DNA of 60,049 nucleotides, counting the filler, from Sphacelaria rigidula (taxonomy: Eukaryota), in the NCBI GenBank assembly GCA_964200075.2. It is 8 parts of 8 records of this genome, joined end to end, with 100 filler letters (N's around TTAATTAATTAA, not from the genome) between each part and the next. Parts side by side here need not be neighbours in the genome. Positions count along the whole stretch, not along the records: positions 52,632 to 60,049 come from CAXNAA020015014.1; 7 more parts are not named here. One strand, written 5' to 3'. Below the pieces are notes generated by a model. It was not told the DNA's origin, made no database searches, and was given only the letters and a program-made list of their open reading frames with translations. This document shows positions 4,801-60,049 of the stretch, one piece after another; within the stretch, counting starts at the first letter, position 1, and every line of letters starts with the position of its first letter. A program made the position numbers and the translations under genes.

Positions 4801-6608
4801 CAACACTCCTTCCGATGCTGAACATGCAGCACTCATGCTCACCACTCGGCCGTATCGACGGTGGCCGCGAAAAGGTGAAGCAGCGACCGAACTAAGGTAC
4901 CAGCAGTGGCTAGAATCGGCAAATTATGTCCGGAACAACAAGACGCCCGAGTAGAGACCAACAAGTGTACCTTAACGCAGATCTCTCAAGGGTACAGGAC
5001 AGCTCTGCTGGATTGCGCAAAACCTTGTAACCAGCTATCAAAACATCTCGGCGGTGTTTCTCGTCTTCTTGCACCAACACGGCACTAGGACAGCATGTAT
5101 ACAAAGGAAGAGACACGAGAATCGAGCCAAGTCCACGTATATTTGCGCCGCAAGAAAACTTCGCTCACCACCGCACCCTAGATTATGTGTTGGTAGAGAG
5201 GATATACCTCTCTTTGGTCACCTCCGAAACACACACTCGAGGTGCCATGCACAAACGCACACAACAGAGGAAAAATCAAAATAGAAAATACCAAAAATAC
5301 TCAATTTATTGAGCAAAAAACACAAATCCTCCTTTACCCCCCTCCCTCCCTCCCTCCCCTCCCTCTGCGCCGTCTCGAAAGGGATGTGTGGCCAACAGTC
5401 AAACGATGAAGACAAGCAACATTTGAGTACGCCCTCCGCCCCTCCGTCCTCTCCCCGTACCAGAAACGAAACAAAAGTAGGGGGAAGAAAACTCGCGCGC
5501 CGAGGAATACGCACCTGTGCGAGCCTTCTAGCGTTGGCGTGGTCGTCGCTCAATCTCGGGAGCTGCTTCCTGAGCCCCTCCATTGCCGCGGCGGCTACCA
5601 CCCCCGACTGCCTCATCCCTCCCCCAAGCGCCTTGCGTACCCGGTGCGCTCGGCTGATGAAATCAGCAGACCCCACCACCGCGGAGCCAACTGGCGCACC
5701 TAGCCCTGCCGTTTTGTTGTTTGGTGGGTAGGTCGGTCGGCCGTGTGTTCGGGTTTGTTGTTGTTTTTTTCGACGAGTCCATCGACCGGTCGAGAGCATA
5801 GCATGGCGGTATCCAGTCCCCAGCAACATACATATATTCAAGTCATGCTCTACTCAGATACCTCTCGTTTCGCTGGATCTATCAGTCATGAAGTATAGTA
5901 CCATAACATCCAGTCTCCCAAAGCACACCAGTATATATACATACATACATGCCATGCTTTATTCACAGACAATCCATAGTACACCATGATTAACACCACC
6001 ACGGGTGTTCATCCACCCCATAAGCACACTAGAGCACCCCCCCCCCTACCCCCTACCCCACTCCTTCCTGCAGTGCACTGCTCATGCGCGTGATTTCTTC
6101 CTGCTGCTTCCTGACTGCCTGACAAAAAAGGACACGTACACGAGTGTTTCGACCCTGTAGCGACAGCATAATGTGGCGAGCACACCAAACATCCGCACTG
6201 TCCGCACAGGCATGGCGGGGCATTTATTTCGGCGCTCCTTTCCACCCTCTACCCCGCTCCACGTGTCCAGGCTATCAGTTGTTGTTTCAAACCTCCATGT
6301 CCTTGCCGAAAAAAAGGTAGTCAACCCGGCAATGTCAAATGCTAAACCACAAGTATGCTGCCGTGTGTTTGGTACAAGGGAGCGTAGCAGCCAATACTTG
6401 CTCACGAACACGCACTGGCATGATACGCATGTTCTGGTGTTGCTCCGGCCCATCTGAGGAGCAGCCCTCCTACTTTTCCCCCTTCACCTTTGGAGTAGCA
6501 CACGGAGACACTATCCACGCCGGACACGATGGAAGCAGGAGACCGCCGAGTAGCAGCAGCAGCGTTCCATAAGCGAGCGCCGTCCATGTGCACCCTCAGT
6601 CCTTCCTC
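1900..6608 (-). CDS. ltaE: Low-specificity L-threonine aldolase (PLP-dependent), 3' four exons; 5' part is outside the contig
   Basis: Exons 6608-6488, 5705-5515, 2794-2588 and 2022-1900 splice in frame at GT-AG sites. They give [18 protein letters not shown]...[17 protein letters not shown]...[17 protein letters not shown]...[16 protein letters not shown]...VQTNVV...[18 protein letters not shown]...PEV*. HxDGARLx[12 protein letters not shown] (PLP lysine) and GGGMRQ are diagnostic family motifs. Confidence 0.95.
3105..3462. repeat. Dense array of GATATC/CGATAT motifs (intronic low-complexity element)
   Basis: Many copies of ATATCG/CGATAT/GATATC in both orientations within ~350 bp. Confidence 0.5.
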
Positions 6609-7420: not shown

Positions 7421-7520
7421 NNNNNNNNNNNNNNNNNNNNNNNNNNNNNNNNNNNNNNNNNNNNTTAATTAATTAANNNNNNNNNNNNNNNNNNNNNNNN
7501 NNNNNNNNNNNNNNNNNNNN
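7421..7520. other. Artificial contig spacer N44-TTAATTAATTAA-N44 (first of seven)
   Basis: Identical 100-bp spacers are at 7421-7520, 14940-15039, 22459-22558, 29978-30077, 37496-37595, 45014-45113 and 52532-52631. The 12-mer puts stops in all six frames. Confidence 0.98.
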
Positions 7521-11300: not shown

Positions 11301-14300
11301 AACCCAGGCCGCGGATGGAAGGGTGCGAGTAGAAAACGCGGAGTTTGCTGAACGGGAAGCCTCCGTTGCGGCAAGGGCGGAGCGTATGACTCGGCGAACG
11401 GGTCTGGGGGGACCGCATGTTTTGGCTGAGTGTGAACGAAAAACTCGGGACTGTGAGGTCGTCTTGAGGTGACCGTCGGGTGCTGCGAGACGAGAAAATG
11501 ATTATCAACGGCGATTCTTGTGCCTTCGGAAATCAGATCCGACAATATATGTAGCGCTTGGATAATCGTAGCGTCGGTTGTCCACAAGTGCGTTTTTTTG
11601 CGCGCATATGCGCTTCTCCTTTAACATACTCGACGCCCGAATCTCTGTACGCTCTGATACAAAATATGCTTCGTTTGTGGCGGCGCTTGGCAACAGAGAG
11701 ATGAAGCGGCTTGTGCGCGTGTGGGAGAGAAGATGCCGCGAAGATAGCGGACCATTGTTGGGCGAATGGGCTCCCCCGACGGAGCAGCATTTCAGCCTAT
11801 CACGATCGTTGGGCACGGCCCGAGCTTGGGTTGAGATCCTTCTCGCCCAGAAAGCGAGGTAGAGCTGGGGATGGTCGATACGAAGGTAGTATATTTTGCT
11901 GCAGTCATACATTTCGTGCTGGTGCAGAGCATGATGGAGGATTGGGATCATGTAAGAATGCGACAGGCGCAAAAATACAGCACGCCAACAAATGTGATAT
12001 AGGGGCTCACAAATACGCGGTTGGCGGTTAACCACCGCCAGGCGAAGCAACTATGAGGTCACCTATAGCGACGAATTCAACAGCTACTCATCTCAGTGCT
12101 TGTAGCTCAACATATCCCCTTCATTTGACGCTGAACTATGCGTTTCAATGAGACATGCGGTTGTTCCTGGCGCATGCAAAAACCCACCTCGCTCTCGATG
12201 CAGAATTGTGGAAGAAGCTGGCGGACCCCGTTTCTTGAAGGGGCTTACCGGAAAGAAGTCGGGAGAGTGGACGCGTGTGACCGAAGGCTTACAGGCATGC
12301 CGGGCTGATGTGGAGGCGGGAGAAGCGAGGATGGCGGACTTCGTTCGGCGATTCGAAGTCGATGTGGCCACGACGAACTTCGAAGCGTCTGCGAAAAAGG
12401 TGAAATGATGCCGAGGTATAAGTGTACAGTAAACTGTGAGAATGCATGGACTAGCAATGGCAGCACGCTCGGCCGTCGTGCTTGGGTAGCAACCAAGAGG
12501 CGATCTTTTGTTCACGCTTCCCACCCATTCCACGAGATCTTACCCGGTGGCGCTGAAGGTATCACCAACTCAATGCCTCCGGCCACACCGCAGAGGCAAA
12601 CATTTCATCACTTATGCCGTATGTATAATGGACGGCGATCACTTGCTCGTTTTTGGAAATAGGTATGCTATGCGTCGTGGGACAATGCCACAGATGAAAC
12701 GAAGCACGAAGAACGCGCGGAAGACCGAGAGGCAGCTTTGGAAGAACGCCGAACCGCTATGGGCGCAACTCTGCCCCCAGGATTCCTTGACAATTCCCAC
12801 GAGCCCTCGAGGAGACCGACGCTCGTGCTTCTCGGCCTGGATCTACCGACAGCTGTTCGTTGTGCGATCAGGGCAAAACTTGATAGCGATGTGCCTGAAA
12901 TGTTTGGCTTGCATTTGAGTGGAAGCAACGCACTATCGTCGCTCGCTGAGTCTCTTAGGCGCCGTGGTCGCGGGTTTCTGGGGCCCTCGCTAGAGCCAGG
13001 ATCGACTTCTACGTGGTCCCAGCAGGAGGCAATGACTTTACGGGGTAGTAACATTGTCATGGAGGCACGAAAGAAAGAGCTCCGTGCAAGTGGTGGAACA
13101 TTTTGCGATCGAAACGATGCCGGATACGCAGGTACCGGACGAAGGCCACTCGCGGGGAGAGGATCCAAGGACAACAGAACTAGCCGTGTGCAGGCTGCCT
13201 TGGCCGCTGGACGGAACGTTTCCGTGGAGGTTCTGCCCGGACCAGGGCTATGGGCTCGTGGTCGATTCCTCCGCGACCTGGAGGCGCTACTTGAGGGCAT
13301 AGACGGATACAGCGGCCATAAAGGCAGCACCGGCGGCAACGTAGGCATGGGTCCCGCCGTGATCCTTGTTCGTGGACACACAGGGAATCGTTCCGGCGGT
13401 GGCGCAGATATTGGGCTCGGTACGAAAGCTGCGGTAGTGGGTAAGATGACGCACGTGAACGCCTCGAAGCTCGAAACCAGTGAGGCAGAAGCTGTGGCGG
13501 CAACGGGGACGAGAAGAGTGAAACGTCATTTAGAGGAGGCAGCTCAGTACCTCCATGATCTGTATGTTACGCATGGGAAGAACATCAATCCTCTTGCGGA
13601 GTCGTCGGCGTGGCAACCTACTGTCGTGAGAGAGTCAGCACTTGACAAAAAGGAAGCTACCCCATACGTCCCAGGAAGTGCGCGAATTTCCACTTGCGAT
13701 ACGACAGGCAATGTTGCAAAGTGTCCTCAGACTCCAGGCCTTGAGATGCTCCTGGCAGCGTGCCAGATGCTCCTCAATCCAACTAGACTCTACCCATCAA
13801 CGGAGGAAGAGCGGCTGAACAACCGGTGGGTGTCCGCTGGCCCTAGGCGTTTGAAAAAGACAGCTGTCACGGCGGAGTTACTCCCCAGAGCCCCTCGGAT
13901 GCCGTCGTATATTTCAGATCTGGCAGCAGCATGTAGGGAACAGTTGGCGAAGGTCCATTCTGTAGTGCAAGTGGCTGATGTGCTTCACAGGGTCGACCTC
14001 ACCATGGTGCCATTTGCAACCGCCCTAGCACTTCGAGAGCTCTCGAGACATCCGAATTGGCCCTCGGTATCTCCCCGCCCGTTATTCGCCGGATGCTGTG
14101 CCCTGGAAGCTTTTTCTGGATGGATAGTTGCTGCTGTGAATGCAGCTACGGCGTTGTCTCTTGCTGGGGGCGGAGGCGACGACAGCTACCATAACCTACA
14201 AGCGAAACGAGACAATATACCCGGGCTAGATTCGGGCAGCATGGAGATCAACGCGTCGAGGTTGGCAACACCAAGGGCTGTGGCAAGTAGCATGCCGTCT

Positions 14301-14540
14301 CCGGAGGCTGATGGATCTGCGCAGCTCAGGGAGTGGAAGCTCCTACACAAGATGAAACAATTTCTGGTTCATGACGATATCAGCGTCGTTGATGACGACA
14401 GTCCTTGGCTCCCCTTTTGTAAGGAAGAAGAGAGCCGAGGTCCCGCCAACACTGTTCGCCACTGCCGTGCCTCGCAGGCGTTCGATACTATAATGGCCGT
14501 CGCACTCCGACCTTTCCAGGCGAGTCGAATAGATCGATAG
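8317..14540 (+). CDS. Large multi-exon protein with N-terminal IQ motifs and two dynein-stalk microtubule-binding-domain (MTBD)-like regions; probably flagellar or cytoskeletal
   Basis: Approximate exons are 8317-8493, 8855-9022, ~9302-9624, ~10106-10438, ~10576-11080, 11308-~11468, ~11589-11858, ~12204-12399 and 12663-14519/14540; a first exon may start at ATG 8061. IQ-like motifs: IQRGVR, IQASIRMFTKRQQY, LQRVCRGMKGRRR. MTBD-like motifs: SLNNLQPKHLKELA...PPPAVLGALRTALAIL...LTWEMAARVL...LLRRMRAF...LLEAYRQDPAWSDEAL...AKTAMAFVGWTREL, and later PGLEMLLAACQMLL...VDLTMVP...RHPNW...ALEAFSGWIVAAV. Domain calls are by eye and some boundaries are uncertain. Confidence 0.75.
9805..9905 (+). repeat. Dispersed repeat starting with CCCTAA-like motifs
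   Basis: CTAACCCTAACCCC..CCCAAGGC...GGGCAAGG.GGGTG...TGTG.GTTGG.AGACCT.AAATC. Also at ~449-570 and ~17428-17535. Confidence 0.7.
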
Positions 14541-14939: not shown

Positions 14940-16374
14940 NNNNNNNNNNNNNNNNNNNNNNNNNNNNNNNNNNNNNNNNNNNNTTAATTAATTAANNNNN
15001 NNNNNNNNNNNNNNNNNNNNNNNNNNNNNNNNNNNNNNNTCTACTGCAATAGACAATAGATTCCATACTGTACGCAGTACATTTTTTGACCGTGTATTCT
15101 ATTGTCCAGGGTATGCGTGACTTGCACATCACAGGAGGAACATACATACTGTCGGTTTCAGCGTCGTTCGTAGTGGTGCAGTGCATTGCAGTGCTGTCCA
15201 ATGCAGTACACCACAGTACACCACTTTGTTTTTCCTTGGCGGAAGGAGGAAACCCGACCCAAGACTTACCTCGCAAGCGAGTTCGTGCCGCGATTACCCG
15301 AAGGCTCGGCTAGACTGCCTGGCGGCAGTCATGTGGGGAAGGCGCCTCGTGCGCTCGTAAGCTTTGCTCGAGGCAGTGTGGGGGGTGCTCCAACTAAAAC
15401 TCTCTATCACCTTGGCGCATTACACGCACCGCCATGCCCTTATGAGCTTCGGCCCTGGTGTCGCTGCAAAGGGGCAGTAGCCGTCAGGTCGGAAGTGTCC
15501 CCATCTTTTTAACGGTACTGCTATACTACGTGGAACGAGATGCCGATATATTACTGTCGCATGTAAGGCGCGCGAAAGCTGCGCGGTATAGAGACGGAGA
15601 AAATGGCTCTGTGCATCTGCGGCGTCGGTTGTCGCAGATGCCAAGCGGAGTTCGGGCACTTAGCACTCGCCACTTTTCAGGTATTCTCTGAGGTTCAGGT
15701 ATAGCCAGGGGAAGAGATGTAGACGGTTTGAGGTACAAGTTCTGGGTGTGCAGTCTTCATTGGATACTCTACAACATCGGCCAGTCGGATGACCGTGTTT
15801 GGGGGCAGTGTATATTTCAGCGGGAGCTGTACCTAGAACTGTCGAAAAATGGTCTCAGGTATACTCGAACGTGACAGTTCCACTTGAAATGTTCATTCAC
15901 ATCTCGTAAACAGTCGCCCCAACAGTTAACACCTAATCGTGCAAAAATTATGCTTCGAAGCATTGTTCTTGCCGTCCATTTATAGAACGTTTTCAATGCA
16001 TACTGGCCAGGAGACGTGTGTTTTCATCTGCGCATGTGCACAATAGGTCGACGTGTGTCTCCTTGTGTAAGTGTCGATTAAGAACACGCAGCACGAGGTA
16101 TGACGGCAGCAGAAAACAAAATTGACAGGAGCGATTCATCTAGCCGTTGCCCTGTGGACAGCAAACACCGGATATTTGCCGGATGTCCCCGTATCAAGTG
16201 GATGGAACCATATTAATCACTGCGGGAGTCCTGAACACCTCGAACCGCCGCGGACATTGGGACGCACGCGAAGGATTCTGACAACTGTAAGCACCGTCCT
16301 GTTTGACGGACGCCGAAGACCAAAATGAAAACCCACGCTCACGTCTTGCTTTGATGAACCGTTGGCTTTGGCAG

Positions 16375-19300
16375 ATCCCCTTTGCAGAGGTGTACACGGA
16401 TGCCCAGCGCAACCTCATCATGGCGATGATAATGGCTGCCAACCAGGAAATCCCCGAAGTGTGCATCTTCTTCAGCGATCGCCTGCTGCGCGCCAATCGG
16501 ACCGTCAAGGTGGACAGGTGTGTCGACGAAACGTTTCGCGGTCGACGGCGACGCGAGATACTTGCATCCTTTTGGAACTAACTGTACCCTGCCATCCCCG
16601 CGCCAGAGACCTCGTAATTCGCAGAACTCCATGGCTGAATAACCAGGACGAAGGAAGCATTCACAACCATGTGAGATGCGTGTCCAAAAACAGGCACCTC
16701 GGTGTCGTCTTGGCAGTTTCATCGAACAGTCGTCCTTCTAAAGTGAAGTGGGGACAACTGTGTTGATGAACGCCAGCTATCACTTTCGTGTCTGAGAGAT
16801 TTTAGTCGCTGGTCTAGTTTTGTCCCCGAAGTTACCGACATTTTCGGACAGTTGCTACTTTCTCCGAGAAATGTCAGAGCGGCTTTCTTGAGCCAGTTCA
16901 GGCAATAGATCAGTGTTAGACTGACCACACATTTCCGGAATAGTTGAGAGAAAATTCCAACCGGTCGGGAAATGTTGCAAAAACACTGAAAAATGCCAAG
17001 TTAATAACTAATAATAATTATCATTATTATCATTATTATCATTATTATCATTATTATTATATCCGTCACATTAGCTCGATCTCTCGAACCCAACGATAAT
17101 ACGTATCATCAATTCTCGATGGTGTTCGTTCCCTGGCGCAGCACTCCACATCTGTTCCATGAATGTACGGTCACGCCATATGTCATTGGGTGCGACGCCC
17201 CAAACCCCCTGGTACTGAACTGTGCTGTACTGGACGGAGGACAATGCATGGGAGCAACGACCATATAAGCAATCGCCCAACTCTTCGACGTGCGACGCGC
17301 CCACAGCATGTCATGTTATGCAACTTGCGGCCTCTCGTCATATGGAGGTGATTCGCGCAAGGAGGAGGATTTACCTCACTAGGGCTATAAGTTACCCATG
17401 TTTGACACGTTTTACAATTATCGCTGCCCCTAACCCTAACCCCAACCCGAGGCATATCGACAATCCTTGGGCAAGGAGGGTGCATAGGGTTTCCCAAAAC
17501 AATTGTGTGTTGGTAGACCTCAAATCGGAGCCGATGGCACCGAACTGAACGAACATGCGCTCTACCCACGCTAGGAGCATACGGGACTGCCAAGCCCCAC
17601 TAAAGATCCGATTCTCGCTGTTCGCGCCCAAATCAAGTAATGTCAACCATGGGGACGCTGTAGCCACAACTGGGGTCAATTTTACTGCGCGAAAGGATAT
17701 GTTGTGCTTTTCTACACGTCCAGCAGTACCATCAACGAAGTCAACACCCAATCTTCCATTTAGGTTGGGTTTTTTTCGGGTATGAGAGAAATGGTGCTCA
17801 TGGCCGCTTGGATAAATGATGCTCATGATGCGATTCATGTGGTTGTTTGTGCATGAACGTTTCGGCCTGCTGGAGGGTAACCTCTGGTCTTTGACGGCAA
17901 GTACTATGCAAAATACGTTCCGGGTCATGTGCACATCTTGTGGTTGTGTGGTGTATGACATCGCCCGGGCAAAGGTGAAGGCGTCGTAGATGGCACCAGC
18001 AAGCGGTTCTTAGCGCGTTCGAAGAAACTCTTCCGACAAAAAAGGAGAAGAACTTGTCCGCAGCTGCGGCATATCGGAGGTATACCACGAGGCACCAAAA
18101 GCAGCATCACGGCTGTATGAAAGCGCCGTTTACCTGTATATTGTGCTCACGGCTGCAGTTGCACGGTGTGTACAACGCTGTTGCTTCGTGCTGATGACGG
18201 TAGGGATCCTGTGCGACTGAACAAGACTACTGGCTGGGGCTGTACTACTGTCTGGACGTCTGTCTGCAGTACTGGTGTGCAACCACAGGTTTCATCGGAA
18301 GCACCCACTGCGAATGTCATAGCCACTTCTTCCGCGCGTGCACGGGCCTGACGATTCCGCGTTTGGGCGAAACTATGTGATGAGCTATACAAGAATGTCA
18401 GGCATACCCGCAGGACAAAATAAGTCGGTTGAAAGTCTTCACTGTACGAGCTGCGCCAGCTCAAAAACGGGTCGGGCTCTAAATCTGGATTACTCACTCC
18501 AGTTTGAGAGTCGCGTGCGTGCGTGCGTGCGTGCGTGCGTGTGTGTATGTGTCTGTGTGTCTGTGTGTCTGTGTGTGCTGCCATCCCATCTATTCTGGAC
18601 GCTAGGCTACACCTTTCGGTGTATCTGGGCGCATCAGCCGGGGTCACACAGGCGAAGGTCAACGCAGAAGTTTTCTGTTCTCATTTAGTCCCCCATAGTC
18701 CTCCCGCAGTGGCTGCCTCACCTTTCTATTCTGGACGCTAGTCTACACCCTTCGATATATGTGGGCGCATCAGCCGGGTTCACACGGACGCAGGTCAACG
18801 CAGAAGTTTTCTGTTTTTATGTAGTCCCCCATTTTCCTCCTGCGGTGCTTTCCTTTCCTTTTTGGCGAGAAGGGTTCGGTGGTTCCTGTCCCTCGTCGAC
18901 CGTGAAGCCGGGCTGTGTGTACACAAGAGAAGTCGCTCTCCAGTGTTGGGCATGGTGTGAAAACAAATCCCAGATCGTGTGACTTCACCGAGATTCGAAT
19001 CCGCTTCCCAACCGTTACAAGGTTTCGAGGTTTGTTGTGCTCTGAATTTTTGGCATGGAGCATTGCAAGGGCAAAACAAGAAACCAACTTGCGGCACATT
19101 GAAATTTGTCGTTCACGAGTGAAAAGAAAATTTTGTGGCACATGTTTATTATACATTTATTTTGGCCTTGCGATATTCGGTGTCAAATTTAAAACCATAA
19201 GCCTCATGAGTGGAGCGATAAATCCAGATGTGGTGCATGTAGTTCTCTTCTTGTAATTTAATTTAGTATGGAATATTATGCGCGCTATATCTTCCGATGG

Positions 19301-20932
19301 GAAACGAATTAAGGTGAAGGTGAGGGTATCGATCGTTTCCCGTGCCCCGAGGAATGTTCGACTAAAACCGGCGTCATCTGCTGTGCAAATCTTTGGGGCT
19401 TCGTCTCGACTCTAGCCTCGAGATATCTCCGTAGGTCTCGGGTTTACTCAACATGACGCGTAATCAGCGAAAACGTAGTTGACCGGGTTTGTTGAGTGCG
19501 TAGGCATGTGCCTCTTGATTAGATTAATAACAAGATGTGCCGACCACTGCCCCCTTCGTCTGCGTCGATGAGGTATGGCTGTGACAGCTCAAGCCCAATT
19601 TTTCGTCGGGTTCAACTCCTTGAGATTCATCATCGACAACGTTTACGACATTTTATCCTGACTTAGCCGTGATAAAACACCAGATACAGTGAGTGGTACA
19701 AGGAATGTCTCCAGCACAGTTGGAGCACTGACCTGCATCGCCTGTATAATAGTATGAATGGATGCACTATTTTGGTGTTTTATTTTTGTGCGCATTCCCT
19801 CCGAACCCCGGAATAGAATGTAGCACCACACGTACAGCCCCTCCCACCCACGCCCGCTCCTTTCACCAGTGAAACGGTACCCTATCCTTCCACCCCTGCC
19901 CCCCTGCGCATCCTGATTTGCCGATTCGTGCCCTGCTTGCTTTCGGTTGGACTCGCCAAAACGCGGCCGTACGCCGCGGAAACTTCATCAACCAGTTTGG
20001 CGTTAACGGCGTTCGAATCCCCGAACTTTCCCGCCTTGGGACGGCTTGGCGTCAGCATGTGGTACAGACGGGACCTGGTATTGCCCCCGCCACGAGGACC
20101 GTTTCGTGTACACACCAGGATGGATTCCCGCGTTGTAAGTGACAGCTCTGTATACAAGTATGCCCAAGTGTTGATATATGTATATATACACGTATGGGTA
20201 GCGCCATTCAGCTGGCGTGTGATGGAGGGACATGTGTACCTTCACGACTTTAGCCGAAGGCACCCGTAAAATCAGTCTCCGCGTGGAAAAACGAGAAGAA
20301 AGTGCGCGCCCCTCACTGGCAACAGAGGAGGCGACGGCGATCTGCATACGCTTATCAGCGGATATACTTGTATGCACTAGTTGTTTTTCAAGATAGGCTT
20401 GCTTTGTGAAGAAGTCACCGTAACACTCAACCGCAAGTGTCGGGCTGCACGCCCGTACTTTCTCTGTCGTGTTATGCAGCACTTGCCGTCATGGCAAATC
20501 CACTTCGCTTTTTCCTCGGCTACGCACTCGAGGTTCGGAAACGTTCTGACTTGCCTCGATCAATCCCCTTCTACGCAGAATTTAGTGAGACGTTTACTCT
20601 AAGTACAAGTGAGACGAGGAGCAGATATTTTAGTGACACGTCGGTGCGGAGAAAATGTGTTGATCAGTCACACCCAGAAATGGCTCTGGCCACCGCATGG
20701 AAGGGCGACATAATTCATTACCCCCCTGAACGTCAGACGACTCTTTGCGTCGCTCGTTCTCCGTGGTTTCACTTCTTAAACAAAGGTGGTGATCAAGCTG
20801 ATCCCTGGATTCGACGATGAGGTATTGTTGGCGATTTCGCTGCACAGTACCACGGTCAAGGCAATGGTTCTGGAGCTGTACGGCACGGGTAACAGCCCAA
20901 GTCGACGGGAAACATTCATCAAGTTCGTCCAG
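16375..20932 (+). CDS. ansA: L-asparaginase type I (cytosolic), three internal exons; partial gene
   Basis: Exons 16375-16517, 19996-20134 and 20786-20932 splice in frame at GT-AG sites. They give IPFAEVYTDAQRNLIMAMIMAANQEIPEVCIFFSDRLLRANRTVKVDS|LALTAFESPNFPALGRLGV...DSRV|VVIKLIPGFDDE...AMVLELYGTGNSP. These match the type I asparaginase motifs IPEV-F-L-R-NR-K, AFxSPN, L-PG and YGxGN. Confidence 0.93.
17008..17060. repeat. (ATTATC)n microsatellite
   Basis: Read directly from the sequence. Confidence 0.9.
18513..19032 (-). mobile_element. tRNA-derived SINE, second copy; 5'-truncated, with tandemly duplicated 3' body
   Basis: The reverse complement aligns to 6668-6990 (AACCTCGAAACCTT...TTCGAATCTCGGTGAAGTCACACGATCTG). 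The 3' segment TCTATTCTGGACGCTAG...CAACGCAGAAGTTTTCTGTT occurs twice (~18589-18724 and ~18725-18860). The tail is (TGCG)n/(TG)n at 18513-18578. Confidence 0.8.
19255..19620 (+). repeat. Dispersed repeat (second copy at ~55403-55765)
   Basis: Shared TTTAGTATGGAA.ATTATG.GCGC.ATAT...AACGAATTA.GGTGAAGGT.AGG.TATCGATCGT.TCCCGTGC.CC.AGG.AATGT and downstream blocks. Confidence 0.7.
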
Positions 20933-22458: not shown

Positions 22459-25400
22459 NNNNNNNNNNNNNNNNNNNNNNNNNNNNNNNNNNNNNNNNNN
22501 NNTTAATTAATTAANNNNNNNNNNNNNNNNNNNNNNNNNNNNNNNNNNNNNNNNNNNNAGTTTAGCAGGGAGAGTCTGGAAAACTAGTGATTAGCTTCGG
22601 GCACAGGGCTTCACGGACGCGTGAGGAGGCTTCAAGCTGAGGCAGCTGCAAAGGCGGCTGGCCCGTGATTGATCCAGACTGGAGACTCCTGCGCCGCGCG
22701 CGCTTTAGGGGTGCTGTGGCGAAATCACGCCGTCACGGTTGAGTATATAGTGGATCCTGGATGATGACCAGGGGGCAAGTGCATCCTGTGGATGATGACC
22801 CTTGCTGTGCAGCCCAGGATTGTGGCACGGGGCTGCAGATGTTTACTCCGAATAATGATAAGGTGTTATAAAGGGTGACAACTGAGACTTTGAGGCCAGT
22901 GGAGCTGGGGAGTCCCTCAACAGCATTCAGACGCTGCAGTACTAGCAACCTGCTAGCGTCACAGGGCACGTGCATGCATCGGAGGCACAGTGACGAGGTA
23001 TATTGATGACATGTTCGAATGGTACAATTACAGCTTCCCCCCTAACGTGCACCATGTTGCGACGGTGCGTTCAAACGCCTGATCGTTTACCATTTGTTGT
23101 TATAGAGGTCTCTACAACTTCTCGGTAGACGGCAATTCTACTTTTTTGGAAGCTGTTTATGGGAGCTACGTTCCAATGTGAAAATATGGATAGTATAGAG
23201 CATCTGCGAGCCCTTTTCGATTCTGTACGAAGTGACGACGCCAAGAAAGTAGCCTAGGACACACTAAAAGCCGCAGACAAGGTCTTTCATCCTCATCAAT
23301 GTCATCTGCGCCAAACGACGAGGGTTATACCGTACGTTTATTGGTCGTGCAGTCGGGTAGGAGATATAATTTCACATATTTATTACGGTCACCCTGTGCG
23401 CGGGGGAACAAAAGATGGTGGGAGATATTTGATATTTTCGTCACCACAACACCGGGGTAGGGGGGAGGGGGGGGGCTACGCGGTATTTCTACAGAATAAA
23501 CTAACAATAAACAAGACACCTTCGCCGAAACGCCATGTCCCAAATGTTTATAGACGCAAATATTCAAGGGGAAAAGGTGTAGGGGAAAGTAATTAGACCC
23601 CGCGTGCTTATGCCGAACATTATCAAAGAGGCACCGGAAACATTTGCCTGCCACAGATAGTAGTGCCTTATATGGCAGGTGGGGGGGGGAGGCGTACCCA
23701 TTTGTTGCTTAGTCGTGTGACCATTGACATATGGCAGGGGGGGTCGACAGTAGAGAAGCGGTCGACAGAGGAACCTTGACGGGAGAGTAGAGGGAAATCC
23801 AGAGCAGCAAAGGGCACCAGAAAGTAACTCCAAGGCAGAGAAGAAAAACCTCTACACGAGGACAGCTGCCCCTATGCACGCCCGCCAAACTACTGCACGT
23901 CACACAGCACCTCTGCGCTGTGAGGGGTTCTAGGCACGCGCTTTTGAGGCAACCCATCTCTCTCCTTCTGTTGATCCCGTGATCCATCCGCACGCTCTGC
24001 GAGGGCAATAAGCTACAGTGGAAGACGCAACCGCATGTACTACTGCCGAGCTATATATATATATATATATATATGTACGCGGGAAAAACTGGTGCTGCTG
24101 TACTTGCGCACATCACGTCCGGCCAGGGATTGAAAATGAAAATAAAGTAAACCCGTCTTCCATACCAACCATATAAGACCGTCCCTACATGCCCCAACAC
24201 GCACGCATAGTCGACTGCGGGATAACGGTAACGTCAGCTAAAACGTTTGATGAAATACTCATATATCATGGGGGACAGGATGCTTGCACGGGGTGGACTT
24301 TTTTCACGACGTCAGGGTCCATGGCCAGGAGGAACGCCACCAGGCTGCTCTCCGGGTACACGAAGGAGCAGAACGATGCCCGCATTCCGGTTGGACAATA
24401 CCCCCATCTGACTCTTCCTCGCTAATGGACGATGGCTCTCCGTGTATATGACGCCGCTTCACATCCTCAGGATCTTCGAAACAGTAAGAACAAGATGCGG
24501 AGGGATGAAACTAGGGCGATTATGATCGGGGATCAATTTTTCAAGCGTTTGAGACAAGATCATACAAAACCGGATATCTACGATGACACGTCCGAACGTT
24601 TCTGACAACCTAGAGGCGGCAAAAACCGTCCAAGGCTAACTTTCAGCACAGTGTGACAATGAGTCCCACTTCCTGGAATTGTTGGACAGTACTTACCCCG
24701 GTCGGGCTCCAGAGCTCTGTGTGCCCCGTAGATGCTTGGCAGAGTTGGAAAGTTGGTAGGTGCTGAGATTTGCAATTTGGCATAAGAGCATCGGGGGCAA
24801 AGAAGTCGTAGCAGGATCTTCCTTTCGACGCTTTATTTGATGATTTGAAACCGGATCGTGATGCCATACGACGGTACATTTACCGTGGTAAACATTTTCC
24901 CATTCACGTGGTGCACACCTAGCCATTTGCCTCGCCCCAAAACTCCCTCGAGAGGAAAATTTCCCCCTCTAGAGATAAAAAAACACCCTCTACAGGACCT
25001 GTGGAGGGGCAAAAAGTGGTAGAGGGGTCCATTTTCTACCATTCTAGAGGGTGTGTCAGCCCATACATCAATAGCCCACTGGAAACACTCTGGATGGAGG
25101 ACCTTGACCTCCCCCTAGCGGGGTGGCGTGCATTCTGCGGAGGCTCTACAACAAAATGAAACCCTCCAGAAGGATGTGTCGACTGCTGAAACTCTACAGC
25201 GATGGCCCGGCCCCCAGAGGTCATTCTGGTTTCATGCCTTTCTGTTCGTTGTTTCACCCTCTGGATAAATGAAATAGGCGTGTCGCATTTGTTTCTTTCG
25301 AAAGAATGCGGTCGATGTCTTTTTGCCGATCTGACAGGTCCATCGCATTTATGTTCCTAGATGGCTCCCACTCGAAAGTATAGTTAGTGGCGCGCGGAGA

Positions 25401-44645: not shown

Positions 44646-45689
44646 CTGCGTTACCGATTAAACGGACACCCAGCGGACATGAGAGTTGCCGGAGTGAACA
44701 CGGAAACCGAGAGGGGGGTAGTATATAAATGCACTTTTACAATGTCGTCCTGAAATGCTAACCCGTCTAGGTGATGACATGAGCGCGGAGGAGCGTTAGA
44801 GTGGGGAGATGAAGCTTGATCCTTGAACCCCAACCCGGAACGAGAACGTTCCCCGACCGTTTCATAATGATCACCGGTCGGTGAAGGTTCATCCGACCCA
44901 CGGTCTTATTCGTAAGTGCAGCACGTTCAAAGCATTCTCGCTGGGGGGGGGGCGTACTCATTTGTTGCTTGCCTTAGTCGTTTGACCATTGACCACGCAT
45001 CCCTTTCGAGACGNNNNNNNNNNNNNNNNNNNNNNNNNNNNNNNNNNNNNNNNNNNNTTAATTAATTAANNNNNNNNNNNNNNNNNNNNNNNNNNNNNNN
45101 NNNNNNNNNNNNNCTCACTTAAAGCGAATGATCAAAGCCGCTCTCAATCGTATCATCTACTCTCAATCTCACGAAAACACTGTTAAGTGCGATTCACCGC
45201 CCAATTTGACGAGTTTTTAGCTGAAATTCTACCACGATATTTTGGTCGTTGTTGCCTACAAAGTCGTTTGGGGTGCAGCCATATGTATCATTTTATCGTA
45301 AAGTGATGGCATTTTCCTCATTTTGCCGCAACTTTTGCTCGCTCTGTCTTTTTTCTTCTTTTTTCTGCGCTTCAAACAATCTTGGGGGGGCTGACCAAAC
45401 AAATGTCGGCGAAATTTCAGCGCCTAACTCTTCGATTTACTAAGTGGATAAACTATTGCCCATCACGTGGGATTGTCAGCTGGACCTGCTCGTATTGTGT
45501 TCGCTCACATCCTTATCCTCTCGACGGTGGAAATCAGAGGCTATAAAAACAAAAAACACTACGAACCCTCCTTCTCCCCACCGTCATCGCGATGGTCGGA
45601 CCATTACGCTACCGGGATTACTTCGCGGGGATGTCCAGTGCACCGCATTGAATACAAAATCATTCAGATACAACGGGAGAATGCTCAAG

Positions 45690-52497: not shown

Positions 52498-53817
52498 CGG
52501 AGACCATCCAACGAACCGGCTACGATCCCACNNNNNNNNNNNNNNNNNNNNNNNNNNNNNNNNNNNNNNNNNNNNTTAATTAATTAANNNNNNNNNNNNN
52601 NNNNNNNNNNNNNNNNNNNNNNNNNNNNNNNGCTGACCCAATCCGCGGGACCAAAATGTAAGGCGCGTACTGGGGGAGAGATGGGTTGATCCCTTGAGAC
52701 CACGGACTCATCCCGAGGAAGGGGAGAGGTTCAAAGTGCGAGGGAGAAAAACAAACAAACTATGCAACGATTGTTGAGTATGAAGCACACTTACGCCGGA
52801 GAACGTCATGTGTGAGAAATTCTAGGAGTGATAATACAAGCTCCGTGATTGTCTCAAGTATCAGCGGCAGTGAAGGTTGAAGGTATTATGGCTCGCATCG
52901 TATTTTGGATAGAGTAACCACGCAGCATCAAGCCAGTGTCACGCACTCGCTTTTCGTCAACCCCTAGTTTAACCATCACCCTACCCGAACCCTCAAGCCA
53001 AGGTGGACTGAAAATCTCAAGCAAGAGGAGCGGCTACGTATGCATCGGCAGATCTCAGATCGACGTCTGGGGGGTTCGAGTGGAGCTGTAACTAAACGCG
53101 CGTTGCGCTCTCTTACGAGCGATCAAGACTGCCACCCCCCCCAAGATCCCACCGAAGGTACCGAAGATAGAAGACGACGATACCCCAGGTCCTTCGGGTT
53201 TCCAGAGTTTTGTCAACACTCGGTAGTCCGGAGTGCTTGGAGTATCGACCGCCGAAAATACCAAGTATTCCAGAGTACCTGGAGTATCGACACCTCAAAT
53301 CATTCGTACCCTATCCTAAGCATCTTCGGAAGATTCGAAAGTCGAAAACTTGCTACTGTCTCTAGCTGTCTGGATACAGTAAGACCGATCACGCTTCACA
53401 CTTTGAGGATTGGCTGCGAGCTTTAGGACTCGTATTCGAAAAAATTGAGTCCAACAAGTCCTATTGCTCGAACACATGCATGCTGATGAGCGGCACGGGG
53501 GGCCAACCGCGCATTCAGCTGAGGGGGATTGATGATCTCAGGAGTTCCTACTTCTGTGATGACAAACCCATCTACCGTTTGTCCGTGTGCCATAAAAGTC
53601 GGATCCGAAGACTACCGTGAGTACTTTACCGTTCGACTCCGCAGCTTTTAATCCTGGGCTCTTTCAGGGGTGCGCCCAAAGTTGTGGTGTTAACCGCACT
53701 GTCACGAGACCCCAGACCCTGCACTTTCTAGAAAATCGTACTGTGGTGAGACCCCCGCTGTATCAGGAGTACAAATAACCACTCAGCCAACAGTCAGCGC
53801 TGACTCTTGGCTATATC

Positions 53818-54158
53818 CTCAGTGGTTATGTGTACTCCCAACAAAAAAGTACAATCCAGGGTGCGAATCTCCCGATCACAAGCCTACGAGTGTCACCATC
53901 TTCGCCGCGCGTTTTTCTTTTTAGATGGAGATTAATTGCGAAAATACACACCAGGTTCAAATAACACACATGTCCAGGCAGCAAAAATGGATAACAAACG
54001 ACCGCAACACATACCGGGCATGTGGAGTGGCGCTGATTACAGGGATGATAACCTCGGGGGGGAACCCATGATCTACCAGCATGACGGCTGAGCGATCCTC
54101 GGGTGTACTCCCAACATGGATTGTACTTTTGTTGGGAATATACAAAATAATCACTGAG
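53818..54158. mobile_element. MITE with ~40-bp TIRs; additional TIR-like copies flank it
   Basis: CTCAGTGGTTATGTGTACTCCCAACAAAAAAGTACAATCC ... GGATTGTACTTTTGTTGGGAATATACAAAATAATCACTGAG. Related ends occur at ~53765-53786 and ~54186-54208. Confidence 0.65.
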
Positions 54159-55044
54159 CAAACAGTCAGCCCTGCCGACTGCTAGCTCAGTGGTTGTATG
54201 TACTCCTATCACGCTGTACTATGGACACCCACTTCCACTGGAGTACGGTTCTCATAATACTTCCAAGCGGCACACAGTATACCGCGGATATCACCACCCC
54301 AGAAAACATCCACCGATTTTCAAATTTGGAGGCCAACGAACGAGCTGGGCCAGCCTAGAAGCGGGTTCAGAGTTTGCACGCCCATTCGCAATTCAATGCT
54401 TCGAGTTGAACCCTAAACGTTTGTATGGACAATCAATAGTACAAAAAAAAAAAAAAGTATGCATAGGCCCGAAGATTTTTATTTCACGATTTCACGGCAT
54501 TTTACTGAAATCAATCTGAAAATTGCCTTTAACTCATGAAATAAAAATCGTTGGGTCCATGCACACTCTTTTTTTATATGCCCTCCTCGTTGTCCATACC
54601 CAATATTAGGGTCCAACTCGAAAGCATTAAGTTGCGACTGGGCTCTCTGAAAACCGGGCTGGTGAAAATTCGGAGTGTATTGCAGCCCACTTACCGGCCC
54701 ACGTTTGGTATTTCAGTATTGGAATTTTGTGTGGGACCTCGCTAGGCCATAATGAACCCAAAAAAGTGGGAGCGGTTGATTTTTTTTGAAAACTTGTTTT
54801 GGACGTTTTAGTAGAGTAAGTATCATATTTTCACGAGAACGCCCATACTCCTCCAAAAACAGAAATTGAAGGCCCATTTCTTTCCTTCGGCATGCCTTCG
54901 CGATTCTGCATGATAAGCTTTTTTTTTTTCTTTAGAGCGTGTTTGAATTCCGTTTTTCTTGAGTACGTCTGTCACGAGACCACGGCTGGACCCCCGGGGG
55001 GTCAGTTAAAGTGCGACAATCAATCAATCATCAATCAAGTTTAA

Positions 55045-55162
55045 CCCTTTCGGAACCTGTCGATGATTTTGGTTTTTGTGAATCGGCATCATTTTCAGTC
55101 ATTTTCAAGTAAAAATGATGCCGATTCACAAAAACAAAAATCGTCAATGGGTTCCAAAAGGG
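55045..55162. mobile_element. Tiny palindromic piggyBac-type MITE (118 bp)
   Basis: TTAA|CCCTTTCGGAACC...TTTTTGTGAATCGGCATCATTTT-loop-AAAATGATGCCGATTCACAAAAA...GGTTCCAAAAGGG|TTAG. A related core occurs at ~31903-31958. Confidence 0.7.
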
Positions 55163-56849
55163 TTAGGTTTCGAATCACAATTCTTAAAATTGAGCTGAAG
55201 AAGTGAGATGAGATCCGAGAGCACTCTCCAGTTTCCCTCAGAATTCGCTTAAAGTTTTTTGAAAAAATGAAGGATTTTTTTTTTTTCCCCATCACCATGC
55301 AGTAGCGATTTTCCTTGCGAAATTTCAATCACAACTCTCGAAAACGGAGACGCGATATCCAGATTTAGTGTATTTATTTAGTGCCTCTGCTCGTAATATA
55401 TCGATTTTAGTATGGAAAATTATGTGCGCCATATTTCGAGATGAATAACGAATTAGGTGAAGGTAAGGATATCGATCGTCTCCCCGTGCTCCAGGTAATG
55501 TCCACACCAAAAGTCGTCATCCTTCGCTGTATAAATCGTTCGGGGTTTCACATGGACTTTGTATGGACGCTGTTTCTGTATGGTATAGGAATTACTAGAC
55601 ATGGGGTTTCATCAACGAGAAAGAAATGGCCCAGACTTTTGAGCAGATGCGCACTTTCCTCTTGAACAGACGATTAATACGATATGCGGATCACGGCCCA
55701 GCTCGTCTGTTTCGATGAGATATTGCTGTGAGAGCTGAAATCTGCGTCTAGGCCGGCCCAGTTCGTATGTTGTTTGCTTGGTCTGCTGGTGTCCCCATAT
55801 TCCTCTTGTTATTTTCTGCTTTCTCTCTCGCTCGCTCTCTTCTCTCATTCCCTTCCCCCCTCATTTATATTTTTCCCATGTAATAATTTTTTTATTCTAA
55901 CACGAGCTTGTACAAATTGCAAATGCATTTTTCTAGTATGAGCCTTGGGAACCATCATGAGCATCCAAATATTATTTTCTAAAAAGAAATGCAAAATGCA
56001 CTTTCCGGCCGTGATGGTGTGTAGCCTCGCTTGTCCTCAGAACAAAACCCATCCGCAATTTGTATAATCCCGTGTTAACGGGGCACTATGGCAAATAAGA
56101 GCAAGTTTCTAGTTCGGGAGAGAACGGAGATCCGCTTTGTCGGATACAGACGCGGGATTTTACAAGTTGTGGATGTACTTGGGGGGGATCAGCGAGGCCA
56201 CACATCACGACTGGTGAGCGCATTTTTGCTTTTCTTTCGAGGCCATTTATTGGATGCTTGTCAAGGTGCCCCAGGCTCATCCTCAAGAAAATCCACTCCC
56301 ATTTTTTTACCCCGCGTTCTTCGCTGTTTCTTGTCTCTTTCGTCTCGATTTCTTCTCTGTTCACTTTTTTCTTTTGTCTTTATTATTTTCGCCGAGACCA
56401 GTTATTCGTGTTATTTTTCTCCTTTCCTTTCCATTCCCTTCCGTTCCTCCTCTACTTCGCTTTACTTTCCCCTTCTTTTCTTCTCTTGTACTTTTCCTTC
56501 TGTTCTTTTCGTCTCTCGTTTTTGTCCACTTTTTGACTTCTTCTGTAATATTTCCGTTTATTTCCTCGTATCCTCCCTTTCTGGAGTTTGCTTTGGCGTT
56601 TGTTTTCCATGGGTACGTCTATCCTGTGGATAATGATCACTATCGCGGCTGGATCCATCGGGTATCAGATAGAGCTAATGATTTGCGAGAAGTAATGAAA
56701 TAATGAATTAATATCAACAGCAATATATATGTCATGCGAAAAGTTTAAATGCGAGTGAGTATACATTCATTAATTTTTCCCGGCTTTTGTCGCCTAATTG
56801 ATGGTGCTGAGTAAAACTAACTCGACAACCGGGAGATGACGACAAGACG

Positions 56850-57080
56850 GCTCGTTGAAGTCATATGACACGTAAAAGCTGGTAGCCTCTGCTGCCCACC
56901 CGTCCAGGTCAAAGCCGACTTGTCCATCCAATGTGGGAAGTCCCTCGAGTGCATTCAGTTTGTCAGATGGACTGGATGCACTCAAGAGACTTCCCACATT
57001 GGATGGACAAGTCGGCTTTGACCTGGACGGGTGGGCAGCAGAGGCTGCCAGCTTTTACGTGTCCTATGACTTCGACGAGC
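56850..57080 (+). ncRNA. Long near-perfect hairpin 1 (candidate pre-miRNA/hpRNA); the 3' arm is a candidate exon
   Basis: Ungapped inverted repeat of ~110 bp (56850-56959 vs 56971-57080) with 6 non-Watson-Crick positions and a 59-bp perfect run. The loop is tiny, and there are no TIR/TSD hallmarks of a MITE. Strand is inferred from splice signals only. Confidence 0.55.
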
Positions 57081-58078
57081 GGGATGCTGATTCGAACGGT
57101 AAGTATAGCATCGTCTTTTTGTAGCCATAGTATACGGATCCGTTTTCATTGTGTTGTTCCTTTTTTTTTGTAGTTTTATACGGTAGCCGTGTTTGTATCG
57201 CGTTCCTGCAGTCCATAGCTCATGGGTGAGTGAGATTGTCATGCCCAAACAATGGGGGACCTGACCGGTAGCTAAGCCGTACCCTGCTCGCACAGCATTT
57301 ATGTTTCGTTCTGGTTTGTCTGCTTGTTGTGTGTCTGAGTTAGATTGTTTTGTTCAATTTTCCACGCGCGGCTAGCTTCACCTTAATTAAGCCATGCTAC
57401 AGGGGCCGGCCATTTTATTGCCACTCATTTATTGGTGTCATTGCGGGATCTGTTTTCTACAATATCTCCTCCTTTCCCTCTCTTGGATTACGCCGTTCGT
57501 TATGTCCTTGTCTATATCTTTCTCCCCCCTCGGGTCTTGGTTCCCGAGAGCTACAGTAGTAGTGTTTTTGTTCTGTTCATCTCGATCACGCCTATGTCTT
57601 GTTACCACGACTGAACCCCGATGTCTCGAAGGAGTTTATTGTCCGAGTTGTAGAACGGTAATGGGTCATGATCAGGACGTATCAACGTGCAGCTACTCTC
57701 CGGATATTCTGCTGTACGCGAGTCGTACGCTCTGTACACATATCCAGATGATCTCGGCAGTGCATGCTTTGCTTGCACTTGAACTATTATTGCTACGTAT
57801 TACTCCTGTATATATCCGACTTTAACCGCGAGGTGTTGTTTCCATGGGATAACACATGTCGTGGATGTGTACAGGCTGCCTAAGCATGAATCTCGATGGT
57901 ACATCGCATATTGACTACATGATGGCACTTCCAACACACTTGTGTATATATATGTAGCTGCTGAGTGCTATAAATATTGAAGACTTGCGTATTCGACCGC
58001 AAGAACCGATCTGGATTCGACCACATGTTGTCCAATTGCGAGAGCTATTTGTGTTGTACAAGTGTATCCTGTAGATAA

Positions 58079-58285
58079 GCCCTACCCCCGGTCTCGCTGG
58101 CAGGCCCTCCACCAATTGGAGTAACACCTGTTCGAGATCATCCTCCCGTGCATCGAGTGGCGCTTCGCCGTCTGTTCCGCCCGGCACATATGAAGAAGCG
58201 CCATTCGGTGCACGGCATAAGGATGATCTCGGGTAGATGTTTCTCCAATTGATGGAGGGCCTGCCAGCGAGACCGGAGGTAAGGC
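58079..58285 (+). ncRNA. Long imperfect hairpin 2 (candidate pre-miRNA)
   Basis: Arms 58079-58166 and 58195-58285 pair with G-U wobbles, a few mismatches and one asymmetric bulge; the loop is ~28 nt. The hairpin is bracketed by acceptor TCCTGTAG (58074) and donor AG|GTAAGG (58279). Confidence 0.55.
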
Positions 58286-58846
58286 ATAACCTACGAACAA
58301 AAAAAACACTCCTGCATGTGTCCAGCTCCGATCGATTGCATTTGTTCATTGTTCCCGTGTGCCGTAACGGGCTCAGGTCTTGTCAACGAGAGCCGTTCAG
58401 GACGATGAGAAACAAGGAGACGTCTGTTCGACTGTTTTCCGCTTTTGTAACGTTTCCGTACATGGCTTCTGTTGTATTTGTGTTCATTGGTGTACCCACC
58501 TGTGTCTTCAACGTGCACATCAATTTTCTCAGGGTCATGTCAGTTTCCGTTTCGGTTTGGAAAATGTACACGGCCCCAAAAATGAGCATGGCTGCGCGAC
58601 TCACGCAACCTGGTGCAGGTATTGCTCCGAAACTGCATTGCAGTGCAGATGTGATTCCGCTGGTTTTGTGGATGACAATGACGGTGTTGGACGCTCGAGG
58701 GGGCGTTGTTACATATCATTGAGAAGCGATTCCAAATGTGTATCAGATGGGCCGAAGCCTGTATTTGTCAAACTGTCGTTTTTTCATCAGCTATTGCAGA
58801 AGACTCGAAACCGACGAAGAAAAACTCCGATTCATTGCCACCTTTA

Positions 58847-59320
58847 GACCAACTCTAATGGGAGCCGTTCGAAATCCTGTTGAAAACTGCCTTTTGAGCA
58901 CTTCTCCGTCGTTTTACGCCCGAAAAGAGAGCTTGGCGGATGTTGACACCTTGGAATGAGTTGCTCTCCTCGCTGAGACCGTTCCAGAGCAACTTTGCAC
59001 TTCCCGCAGGCCGCAGTTTTAATTTTGGCCAAACTTTCGTTTTCAATAAAAAACGGTCACGTGATCAAAATACTGGCAATGTCCCCTCTGTTTTTTTATA
59101 ACTTGACCGTTTTTTATTGATAATGCAAGTTTGGCCAAAAATAAAACTGGGGCCTGCGAGAAATACAAAGTTGCCCTGGAACGGTCTCAACGAGTTGTGC
59201 AAGTCATTTCAAGGCGTCAACCTCCGCCTACGTAGCTCTCTTATCGGACATAAAACGACGGAGAAGGGCCGAAAAGCCGTTTTCAATAGGAGTTTTGAAC
59301 GACTCCCATTAGAGTTGGCC
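58847..59320. mobile_element. Foldback MITE with ~220-bp inverted arms, PIF/Harbinger-like ends
   Basis: TTA|GACCAACTCTAATGGGAG ... CTCCCATTAGAGTTGGCC|TCA. The arms are alignable over their full length, with 3-bp TNA flanks. Confidence 0.7.
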
Positions 59321-59729
59321 TCAAAACGGTTCTAGGAAAGTACTAGACAATCTGAAGAAACTGTAGTACTGATGTAAATAAATTTGTGTCTTGTTTTCGC
59401 ATCCAAGCTCAGCACGGAGAGCAAAAACACACGGAAGAATCGGAGAACACGGCGACATTTGTGCTTCACTAAGATGTGTTGTAGTACAACAAAAACACTG
59501 GCAAGGCATTTCGCGTTCGACGGAATACACGACCCTAGCTAGTACTGTTGATGCTTTTTTCCAGGTCGATTTTTTCTCGAAGCCTGTTGCTTTCGAGAGT
59601 TTGCACGGTCGTGATGAAACAGTTGTGTAGTTTGAGGAATACACAGTCAAAACCTCCGTCTCATAACGTCTGTTATGGCTGGAATTGCCAGATTTCCTGT
59701 AAATATTGCAAGGGTAGGTCGAGTGGGGT

Positions 59730-60005
59730 ATACTCAATACTCAGTATTTTTGAAGAGCCATACTTTTAGTACTCAAAATTTGAGTAGAATATTTGGGGCC
59801 GTACTCGACGTACTCAAAGTTTGAGTAGAAAATTGAGGTCATACTCAAGTAATACTGAGAGTATTTACTCCATATTTGAGTAGAGTATTTGAGACCATAC
59901 TCAACGTACTCAAAATTCGAGTAGAGTATCTGAGGCCGTACTCGACGTACTCAAAATTCGAGTAGAGTATTGAGGTCGTACTGAAGTGATACTCTATACT
60001 CAAGA
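59730..60005. repeat. Minisatellite-like array of ~41-bp units with an internal palindrome
   Basis: Unit GTACTCAAAATT(C/T)GAGTAGAGTAT(C/T)TGAGGCCGTACTCGAC is repeated about 5 times with degeneration. It contains TACTCAAAATTTGAGTA. Confidence 0.75.
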
Positions 60006-60049
60006 ACGTTGTGATTCTTAGTTTTTTGGTTGGCGGTATTTGGGGCATT

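Follow-up and report, generated by a model that had tools for sequence, protein, structure and literature searches.

The window, the whole stretch of DNA analysed here (60,049 nucleotides from Sphacelaria rigidula), is a chain of eight pieces, each of ~7.4 kb, with N44-TTAATTAATTAA-N44 spacers between them (7421-7520, 14940-15039, 22459-22558, 29978-30077, 37496-37595, 45014-45113 and 52532-52631). In the last piece (52632-60049), a spacer-less palindrome of 231 nt is found at 56850-57080 with its axis at base 56965, and its genuine context is limited to ~4.2 kb on the upstream side and ~3 kb on the downstream side. By read depth, the surrounding sequence is a unique block (~55856-58831) bracketed by high-copy repeats, several of which are themselves hairpins. 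The 'palindromes' that appear at the seven spacers were discarded as spacer artefacts, and a 10-N gap is present at 34427-34436.

An inverted-repeat search returns arms at 56850-56959 and 56971-57080 (110 nt each, 95% complementary, 11 nt between them), and base-by-base comparison adds three G-U pairs (56960-56962), with which the pairing reaches the centre. The non-Watson-Crick positions within the 110-nt arms are three G-U (56856, 56883, 56955), two C-A (56943, 56946) and one U-C (56866), so that the whole duplex of 115 pairs has 6 G-U pairs and 3 mismatches. These nine differences between the arms (7.8%) comprise eight transitions and one transversion. They are not evenly spread: by our arithmetic ~0.8 would be expected within 10 nt of the axis, and four are found there, all of them transitions, which turn a symmetric tCCAtc-type sequence on the + strand into a T-richer TTTGTC before CAG. 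Read on the + strand, six of the eight transitions give G-U and two give A-C, a lean that is non-significant (one-sided binomial ~0.14, our calculation). The RNA fold of 56840-57100 has an energy of -225.7 kcal/mol versus -85.09 +/- 4.84 for dinucleotide shuffles (z -29.05), with none of 200 shuffles as good, and its sole loop is an acceptor-like trinucleotide of 3 nt.

Table 1. Features of the palindrome and of the exon-like stretch that begins at its axis (positions along the whole window).
Feature	Position	Strand	Remarks
Palindrome left arm	56850..56964		Inverted copy; - strand reading gives DKLNALEGLPTLDGQVGFDLDGWAAEATSFYVSYDFNE
TAA in the exon frame	56873..56875	+	Would end any exon spanning the whole hairpin from AG 56845-56846
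Clustered arm differences (4 of 9)	56955..56962		From base-by-base comparison of the arms
Apex triloop CAG	56964..56966	+	Axis base 56965; AG is the acceptor-like dinucleotide
Palindrome right arm	56966..57080		Template for the left arm, or copied from it
Exon-like stretch	56967..57098	+	44 codons (132 nt, phase 1-1); of the six frames, only this one looks coding by codon usage
Stretch with a second copy	57015..57100		One extra contig each in X1, X3 and X7; 57049 C>T, 57059 G>C, 57064 C>A
Donor-like motif GTAAGT	57099..57104	+	Read in the sequence

Several other features of the last piece were recorded. A second, older palindrome, nearly without spacer, is found 1.1 kb downstream (58076-58288, centre ~58181). 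Its RNA fold has -170.7 kcal/mol (z -17.4), its inner and outer arms are offset by a register shift of 3 nt, and it is at single-copy depth, with one 834-nt contig bridging it in run X1 and another in run X3 (read sets described below). Its right end is donor-like (GGAG/GTAAGG), and its - strand reads as protein-like ...GEAPLDAREDDLEQVLLQLVEGLPARPGVG. The two palindromes are unrelated at the DNA level, the best local scores (17 and 22) staying below the highest score of the shuffles (25). Three further hairpins (58843-59324, 55042-55165 and 54400-54622) fall where binned read depth is very high, reaching ~7e5 in X1, and are presumably MITE-like or foldback repeats. Part of one of them (55073-55133) has a 92% copy in another piece, at 31900-31960. 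Units of ~99 nt at 59758-59856 and 59895-59993, tandem or dispersed and 85% identical, lie in a high-copy region with many alternative read joints. A dispersed repeat is common to pieces 8 and 3 (55352-55739 versus 19215-19592, 69% identity over 395 nt). Just upstream of the 231-nt palindrome, the + strand is strongly CT-rich over 56230-56620 (GC skew to -0.44, AT skew to -0.65), and several variant contigs map onto this tract. In another piece, an ORF fragment on the - strand (5218-5853) matches residues 50-113 of the Pfam family Beta_elim_lyase (E 2.6e-18) and is probably one exon of a threonine-aldolase-type gene.

The exon-like stretch has the boundaries ttgtcag/A at 56967 and G/gtaagt after 57098. 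It combines AG and GT flanks, an open frame and a length divisible by three, as a cassette exon would. All three frames of the + strand are largely open over the hairpin, so openness alone is weak evidence for coding. Codon usage was therefore scored with a log-odds model trained on one verified ORF of 625 codons (12663-14540) and cross-validated in windows of 44 codons. As a control, in-frame windows of this ORF score 0.047 +/- 0.118 (n=50) and windows in other frames -0.188 +/- 0.141 (n=250). The frame of the exon-like stretch scores 0.247 bits per codon, which exceeds every one of the 250 out-of-frame windows and 94% of the 50 in-frame windows; it is the best of the six frames, the runner-up scoring 0.003. 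Comparison with non-coding windows of the same piece gives the same picture for this frame. Thus, there is moderate support, from a model of one gene, that the right arm is coding-derived, and a coding origin is suggested by this model together with the splice-like motifs and three variant sites in a second copy (see below). By our codon reading in the exon frame, seven of the arm differences change an amino acid and two are silent.

The ORF on which the model was trained lies on the + strand of piece 2. It is uninterrupted and matches no Pfam family. Of its 28 relatives (E up to 1e-5), nearly all are unnamed ORFs predicted on public assemblies, among which there is a 99% match; a single one carries a name, an 'expressed unknown protein' of Ectocarpus siliculosus with 35% identity. 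By these matches the ORF looks like a member of a lineage-restricted gene family. The Ectocarpus match and the algal and marine labels of the runs described below agree with a brown alga other than Ectocarpus itself.

No other coding exon was detectable in the 7.4-kb piece (52632-60049), and none of its 70 ORFs of at least 55 aa reaches the Pfam cut-off. An Asp-rich loop continuation of the peptide was found after none of the downstream acceptors in the piece. Continuation as an EF-hand was rejected as well, as in any frame of the piece there is neither an acceptor followed by G.[ILV]...E nor a loop of the D.D.DG type.

A preliminary description of the locus had presented the hairpin as an intact exon paired to its own inverted copy. 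Its six non-Watson-Crick positions are reproduced exactly, the fold places its CAG acceptor as the only loop, and the coordinates, length, phase and 44-aa peptide of its candidate exon all agree with the sequence, as do a branch-like CTAAC at 56817-56821 and an AG at 56845-56846. An alternative exon that it had proposed, including the whole hairpin from this AG, would start at 56847 and meet the in-frame TAA listed in Table 1. Of the 'intact exon', the coding-like frame stands, while an exon of a gene at this locus would be conjectural: the searches made gave no neighbouring exon, Pfam family or close homologue.

To place the peptide in a protein family, it was compared with several databases. 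Neither the 44-aa peptide nor an 82-aa ORF matches any Pfam family at E up to 1, and Pfam gave nothing either for both arm ORFs and for the ORF of the second palindrome. A word-indexed protein search returned nothing for the 44-aa peptide against longer proteins, nor for the 82-aa ORF at near lengths, and the ESM Atlas search gave no usable match. In the PDB, the top match is to glutamine-binding proteins (E 0.89). The one locus returned by a scan of metagenome contigs (L001) was rejected as a chance match of 8 residues in an unrelated ORF, probably a phage gene of the thymidylate-synthase type. A full HMMER search of 1.84 billion representative sequences gave 17 hits at E up to 1e-3 (12 FG-GAP, 4 Flg_new, 1 other), each of them the sum of many 9-12-bit matches to repeat units; an E-value of 4.8e-12, for example, adds up 19-21 units of ~9 bits each. 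These E-values overstate the similarity, because repeat proteins multiply one weak match.

The peptide does resemble FG-GAP beta-propeller proteins in that its L.TLDG..GF.LDG.AA aligns with blade starts in 12 of the 17 HMMER hits, and in that a strand is followed by a D.D.NG-type loop which closes the exon. Unlike in members of the family, its single stretches reach only 9-12 bits, there is no Pfam hit, and the Flg_new and glutamine-binding matches are equally weak. A blade profile matches only the two arms among the 2290 ORFs of the whole window, the profile being circular for residues 1-30, and the maximum over 200 shuffles was 17 bits, in a control that is biased in that the 17 targets had been picked by the real peptide. 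Membership of FG-GAP (PF01839) is thus unproven, given the repeat-summed E-values, the rival weak matches and the missing Pfam hit, and the resemblance of the motif to the start of an integrin-type propeller blade is treated as a lead. Integrin-like FG-GAP genes do exist in brown algae, according to the accessible portions of PMC3192720 and bioRxiv 10.1101/2024.02.19.579948.

The palindrome was compared with independent sequence data by matching the whole 52632-60049 piece to short-read contigs (Logan) of four runs, including X1, X3, X6 and X7. The labels of the runs that match the stretch include 'algae metagenome' and 'marine metagenome', and X3 comes from a different study from X1. In X1, possibly the sample from which the window derives, contigs at 56429-56913 and 57017-57654 have 0 differences from the window. 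In X3, contigs at 56549-56920 and 57010-57655 have 6 and 8 differences, which sum to 14 of 1018 bases (1.4%). Each of these arm contigs joins unique flank to 64-71 nt of one arm and carries the variant letters of that arm. The depths of the arm contigs in X1 (62.6 and 71.3) are like those of other single-copy contigs (56.7-79). Among the contigs listed, none bridges the centre (56914-57016), which leaves the axis without independent confirmation; k-mer assembly behaves in this way inside palindromes. The palindrome is a genuine inverted duplication, and an assembly chimera is unlikely, since the arms differ at nine sites and two studies agree. As the arms are 7.8% apart versus 1.4% between X3 and the window, and as X3 carries both arms, the palindrome predates the split from the X3 strain.

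A second copy of part of the exon-like stretch was also found in the reads (Table 1). The extra contigs have depths of 87.8 (X1), 38.2 (X3) and 11.3 (X7), which is single-copy-like or somewhat above in X1 and X3. In the exon frame, the changes at 57049, 57059 and 57064 are silent, V>L and silent, although three sites prove little. The extra contig is read as another locus, not as an allele, because the variant recurs in three studies and is the only version in X7. The depth is roughly twice that of single-copy sequence in X1 (56848 to ~57839) and in X3 (56848-57591). Both runs have contig breaks at 57626-57655, and additional variants lie at 57125 and 57610. Taken together, these observations suggest that the two loci have several hundred further bases in common on the downstream side of the exon. 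The pattern fits a segmental fragment, consisting of the exon and part of an intron, that is present twice, with the axis of the palindrome as the left end of the fragment here.

An interpretation of the X7 variant contig, which ends near 57100, as an expressed and spliced paralogue was dropped, as its length of ~86 nt is close to that of a k-mer branch around three clustered variants. None of the runs listed is recorded as RNA; that X6 and X7 are RNA is a guess, and both were used in contig form only. Their contigs in the unique region are thin, scattered and 151 nt long, with no cover over the hairpin in X6, and are uninformative on expression.

With respect to the preliminary description, the read data and the nine arm differences go against the chimera that it had named as a possible refutation. 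The inverted duplication holds, while 'recent' applies loosely, the arms being 7.8% apart versus the ~1.4% that separates the window from the X3 strain. The search for a parent gene by protein that it had proposed retrieved no parent, yet the reads reveal the near-identical second copy.

The explanation that we favour, and to which we give about an even chance, is that the locus carries a neutral inverted duplication, formed by fold-back at one end of an exon-derived fragment that is itself duplicated, in other words a pseudo-exon, at a single nuclear locus of a brown-alga-like stramenopile. Snap-back or hairpin-end synthesis would have copied the first 115 nt of the fragment backwards onto the same fragment; replication of a hairpin-capped end is an alternative route to the same shape. 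The axis would then mark the 5' end of the fragment, which is within one base of the acceptor AG. The exon-like stretch, probably with several hundred downstream bases, would be present twice in near-identical form, and the fragment here would be one of these copies, lying between high-copy repeats with no other recognisable coding sequence around it. Neutral persistence would since have allowed the arms to diverge by ~8%, with changes concentrated centrally. We infer fold-back synthesis from an inverted copy that directly abuts its template, with no spacer or target-site duplication, from the single-copy depth of the arms and from the position of the axis at the apparent end of the fragment. 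The seven replacement and two silent changes between the arms are counted for this reading, as what may be neutral divergence.

In a + strand transcript, the exon would be paired with the 115 nt that directly precede the acceptor, so that the branch region and pyrimidine tract would lie inside the duplex of 115 pairs and only CAG would be exposed. Splicing and normal inclusion of the exon would thus be unlikely, because the branch region and pyrimidine tract would be double-stranded. The duplex may be a substrate for a Dicer-type enzyme, in which case the products would match the other copy.

The pile-up of transitions at the centre fits the general view that asymmetry there stabilises palindromes and that bases in the loop are exposed, although selection for a T-richer tract could also have produced it. 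Several observations weigh against a relic. The position of the axis at an exon-like boundary, together with the T-richer tract, could indicate selection for splicing. The G-U lean, non-significant as it is, is towards keeping the + strand RNA paired. Finally, the presence of two spacer-less hairpins within 1.4 kb hints at something more systematic than one repair accident. Templated insertions of polymerase-theta-type repair are typically shorter than 115 nt. The copy here is much longer than such insertions, and its mechanism is read from its shape. It does resemble the snap-back products of alternative end-joining and the quasi-palindromes described in the available sections of PMC5728401, PMC2943611 and PMC9303309, in that the inverted copy lies directly against its template, the axis is at the apparent end of the fragment and hallmarks of a transposon are missing.

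Of the other explanations, the one that survives best is a young hairpin-RNA or proto-microRNA gene, in which the inverted exon duplication would be diced to si/miRNAs that silence the other copy or its family, following the route known from plant MIRNA genes. This appears possible but rather unlikely. Young plant MIRNA genes reportedly arise through inverted duplication of a target sequence, according to a study from 2004 that PMC4513859 cites as reference 68. As at such loci, there is a long and near-perfect foldback (a stem of 115 pairs, nine of them G-U or mismatched, closed by a triloop) whose arms appear to resemble coding sequence elsewhere in the genome: the foldback is confirmed, codon usage makes the arms look coding-derived, and the near-identical copy of 57015-57100 in the reads is a potential target, although the protein and contig searches retrieved no parent gene. 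The survival of the palindrome beyond the split from the X3 strain and the G-U lean of the + strand also favour this explanation, the latter being non-significant. The palindrome differs from young plant MIRNA loci in lacking a spacer and in belonging to a brown-alga-like lineage, and it is known as DNA. The stem is also far longer than canonical miRNA precursors, and all 30 Rfam matches in the piece are generic and below the gathering threshold, the top one over the hairpin being mir-1420 (37.5 bits versus 70).

Together with young plant MIRNA genes, the hpRNA loci of Drosophila are the closest analogues with a known function. In the parts of PMC4513859 available, genomic hairpins, often intronic, are given as the likely source of Ectocarpus miRNAs, which speaks for a hairpin-RNA gene; the same text reports that Ectocarpus pre-miRNAs have no BLAST similarity to protein-coding genes, and thus no sign of the plant-type route, which speaks against it. 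Drosophila hpRNA loci, as described in sections of PMC10317233, are likewise gene-derived inverted repeats with potential siRNAs against the parent, but those loci are transcribed, diced and usually longer, whereas the palindrome here is known as DNA. A fuller version, to which we give somewhat less credence still, is that of a hairpin-RNA gene of the brown-alga lineage soon after its birth by inverted duplication of a target exon, with siRNAs against the second copy and the older palindrome at 58076-58288 as a second member of the cluster. An exon-derived silencing hairpin would be new in the brown-algal lineage.

It is improbable that the palindrome is a low-copy foldback transposon or MITE like the high-copy hairpins nearby, with a protein-like frame that is accidental or captured. 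The last piece is certainly hairpin-rich: of the window's 11 genuine inverted-repeat pairs, 9 are found here, read depth shows three of the hairpins to be high-copy, and 55073-55133 has its 92% copy in another piece. The palindrome shares with MITEs and foldback elements, including its neighbours at 55042-55165 and 58843-59324, the hairpin-forming inverted repeats and the repeat-rich setting. It differs from them in that its arms are single-copy: the arm contigs in X1 have the depth of their single-copy neighbours, contrary to the many copies expected of a MITE, and there is no other copy of the palindrome in the window. There are also no distinct terminal repeats at 56849/57081 and no target-site duplication, the flanks 56840-56849 and 57081-57090 sharing no direct repeat by eye, and codon usage points to coding in a single frame.

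A functional, frame-neutral cassette exon, with its inclusion governed by a hairpin that masks the acceptor region, seems very improbable. The AG and GTAAGT flanks, the length of 132 nt, the phase of 1-1 and the coding-like codons would all suit such an exon, and the central substitutions raise the T-richness of the tract ahead of the AG. Against this, the 7.4-kb piece has no further detectable exon or domain, a duplex of -225 kcal/mol would enclose the branch and pyrimidine region, and the arms have diverged by seven replacement and two silent changes. A weak point against it is that no splice joint at 56966/57098 is found among the joints listed, in runs that are contig-only.

Least credible of all, and extremely so, is an artefact of sequencing or assembly, for instance a chimeric read that folded back or an adapter that was missed. 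Such errors typically have the shape of a spacer-less palindrome, and none of the independent contigs listed bridges the centre. On the other hand, the arms are not identical (nine sites differ), the variants of each arm are joined to its own flank in contigs from two studies (X1 and X3), and the palindrome is only 231 nt long, inside a contig and with unique sequence on both sides.

Taken as a neutral fold-back duplication, the palindrome is of an ordinary kind and of modest interest. If it were transcribed and diced, it would mean that brown algae, in which microRNAs evolved independently, also make silencing hairpins from copies of target genes, and the locus would be a datable early stage of that process. 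If it is a relic of repair, it provides a clean natural case of a palindrome persisting without a spacer in a eukaryotic genome, and its substitutions, piled up at the centre, would be useful for thinking about palindrome stability without being surprising.
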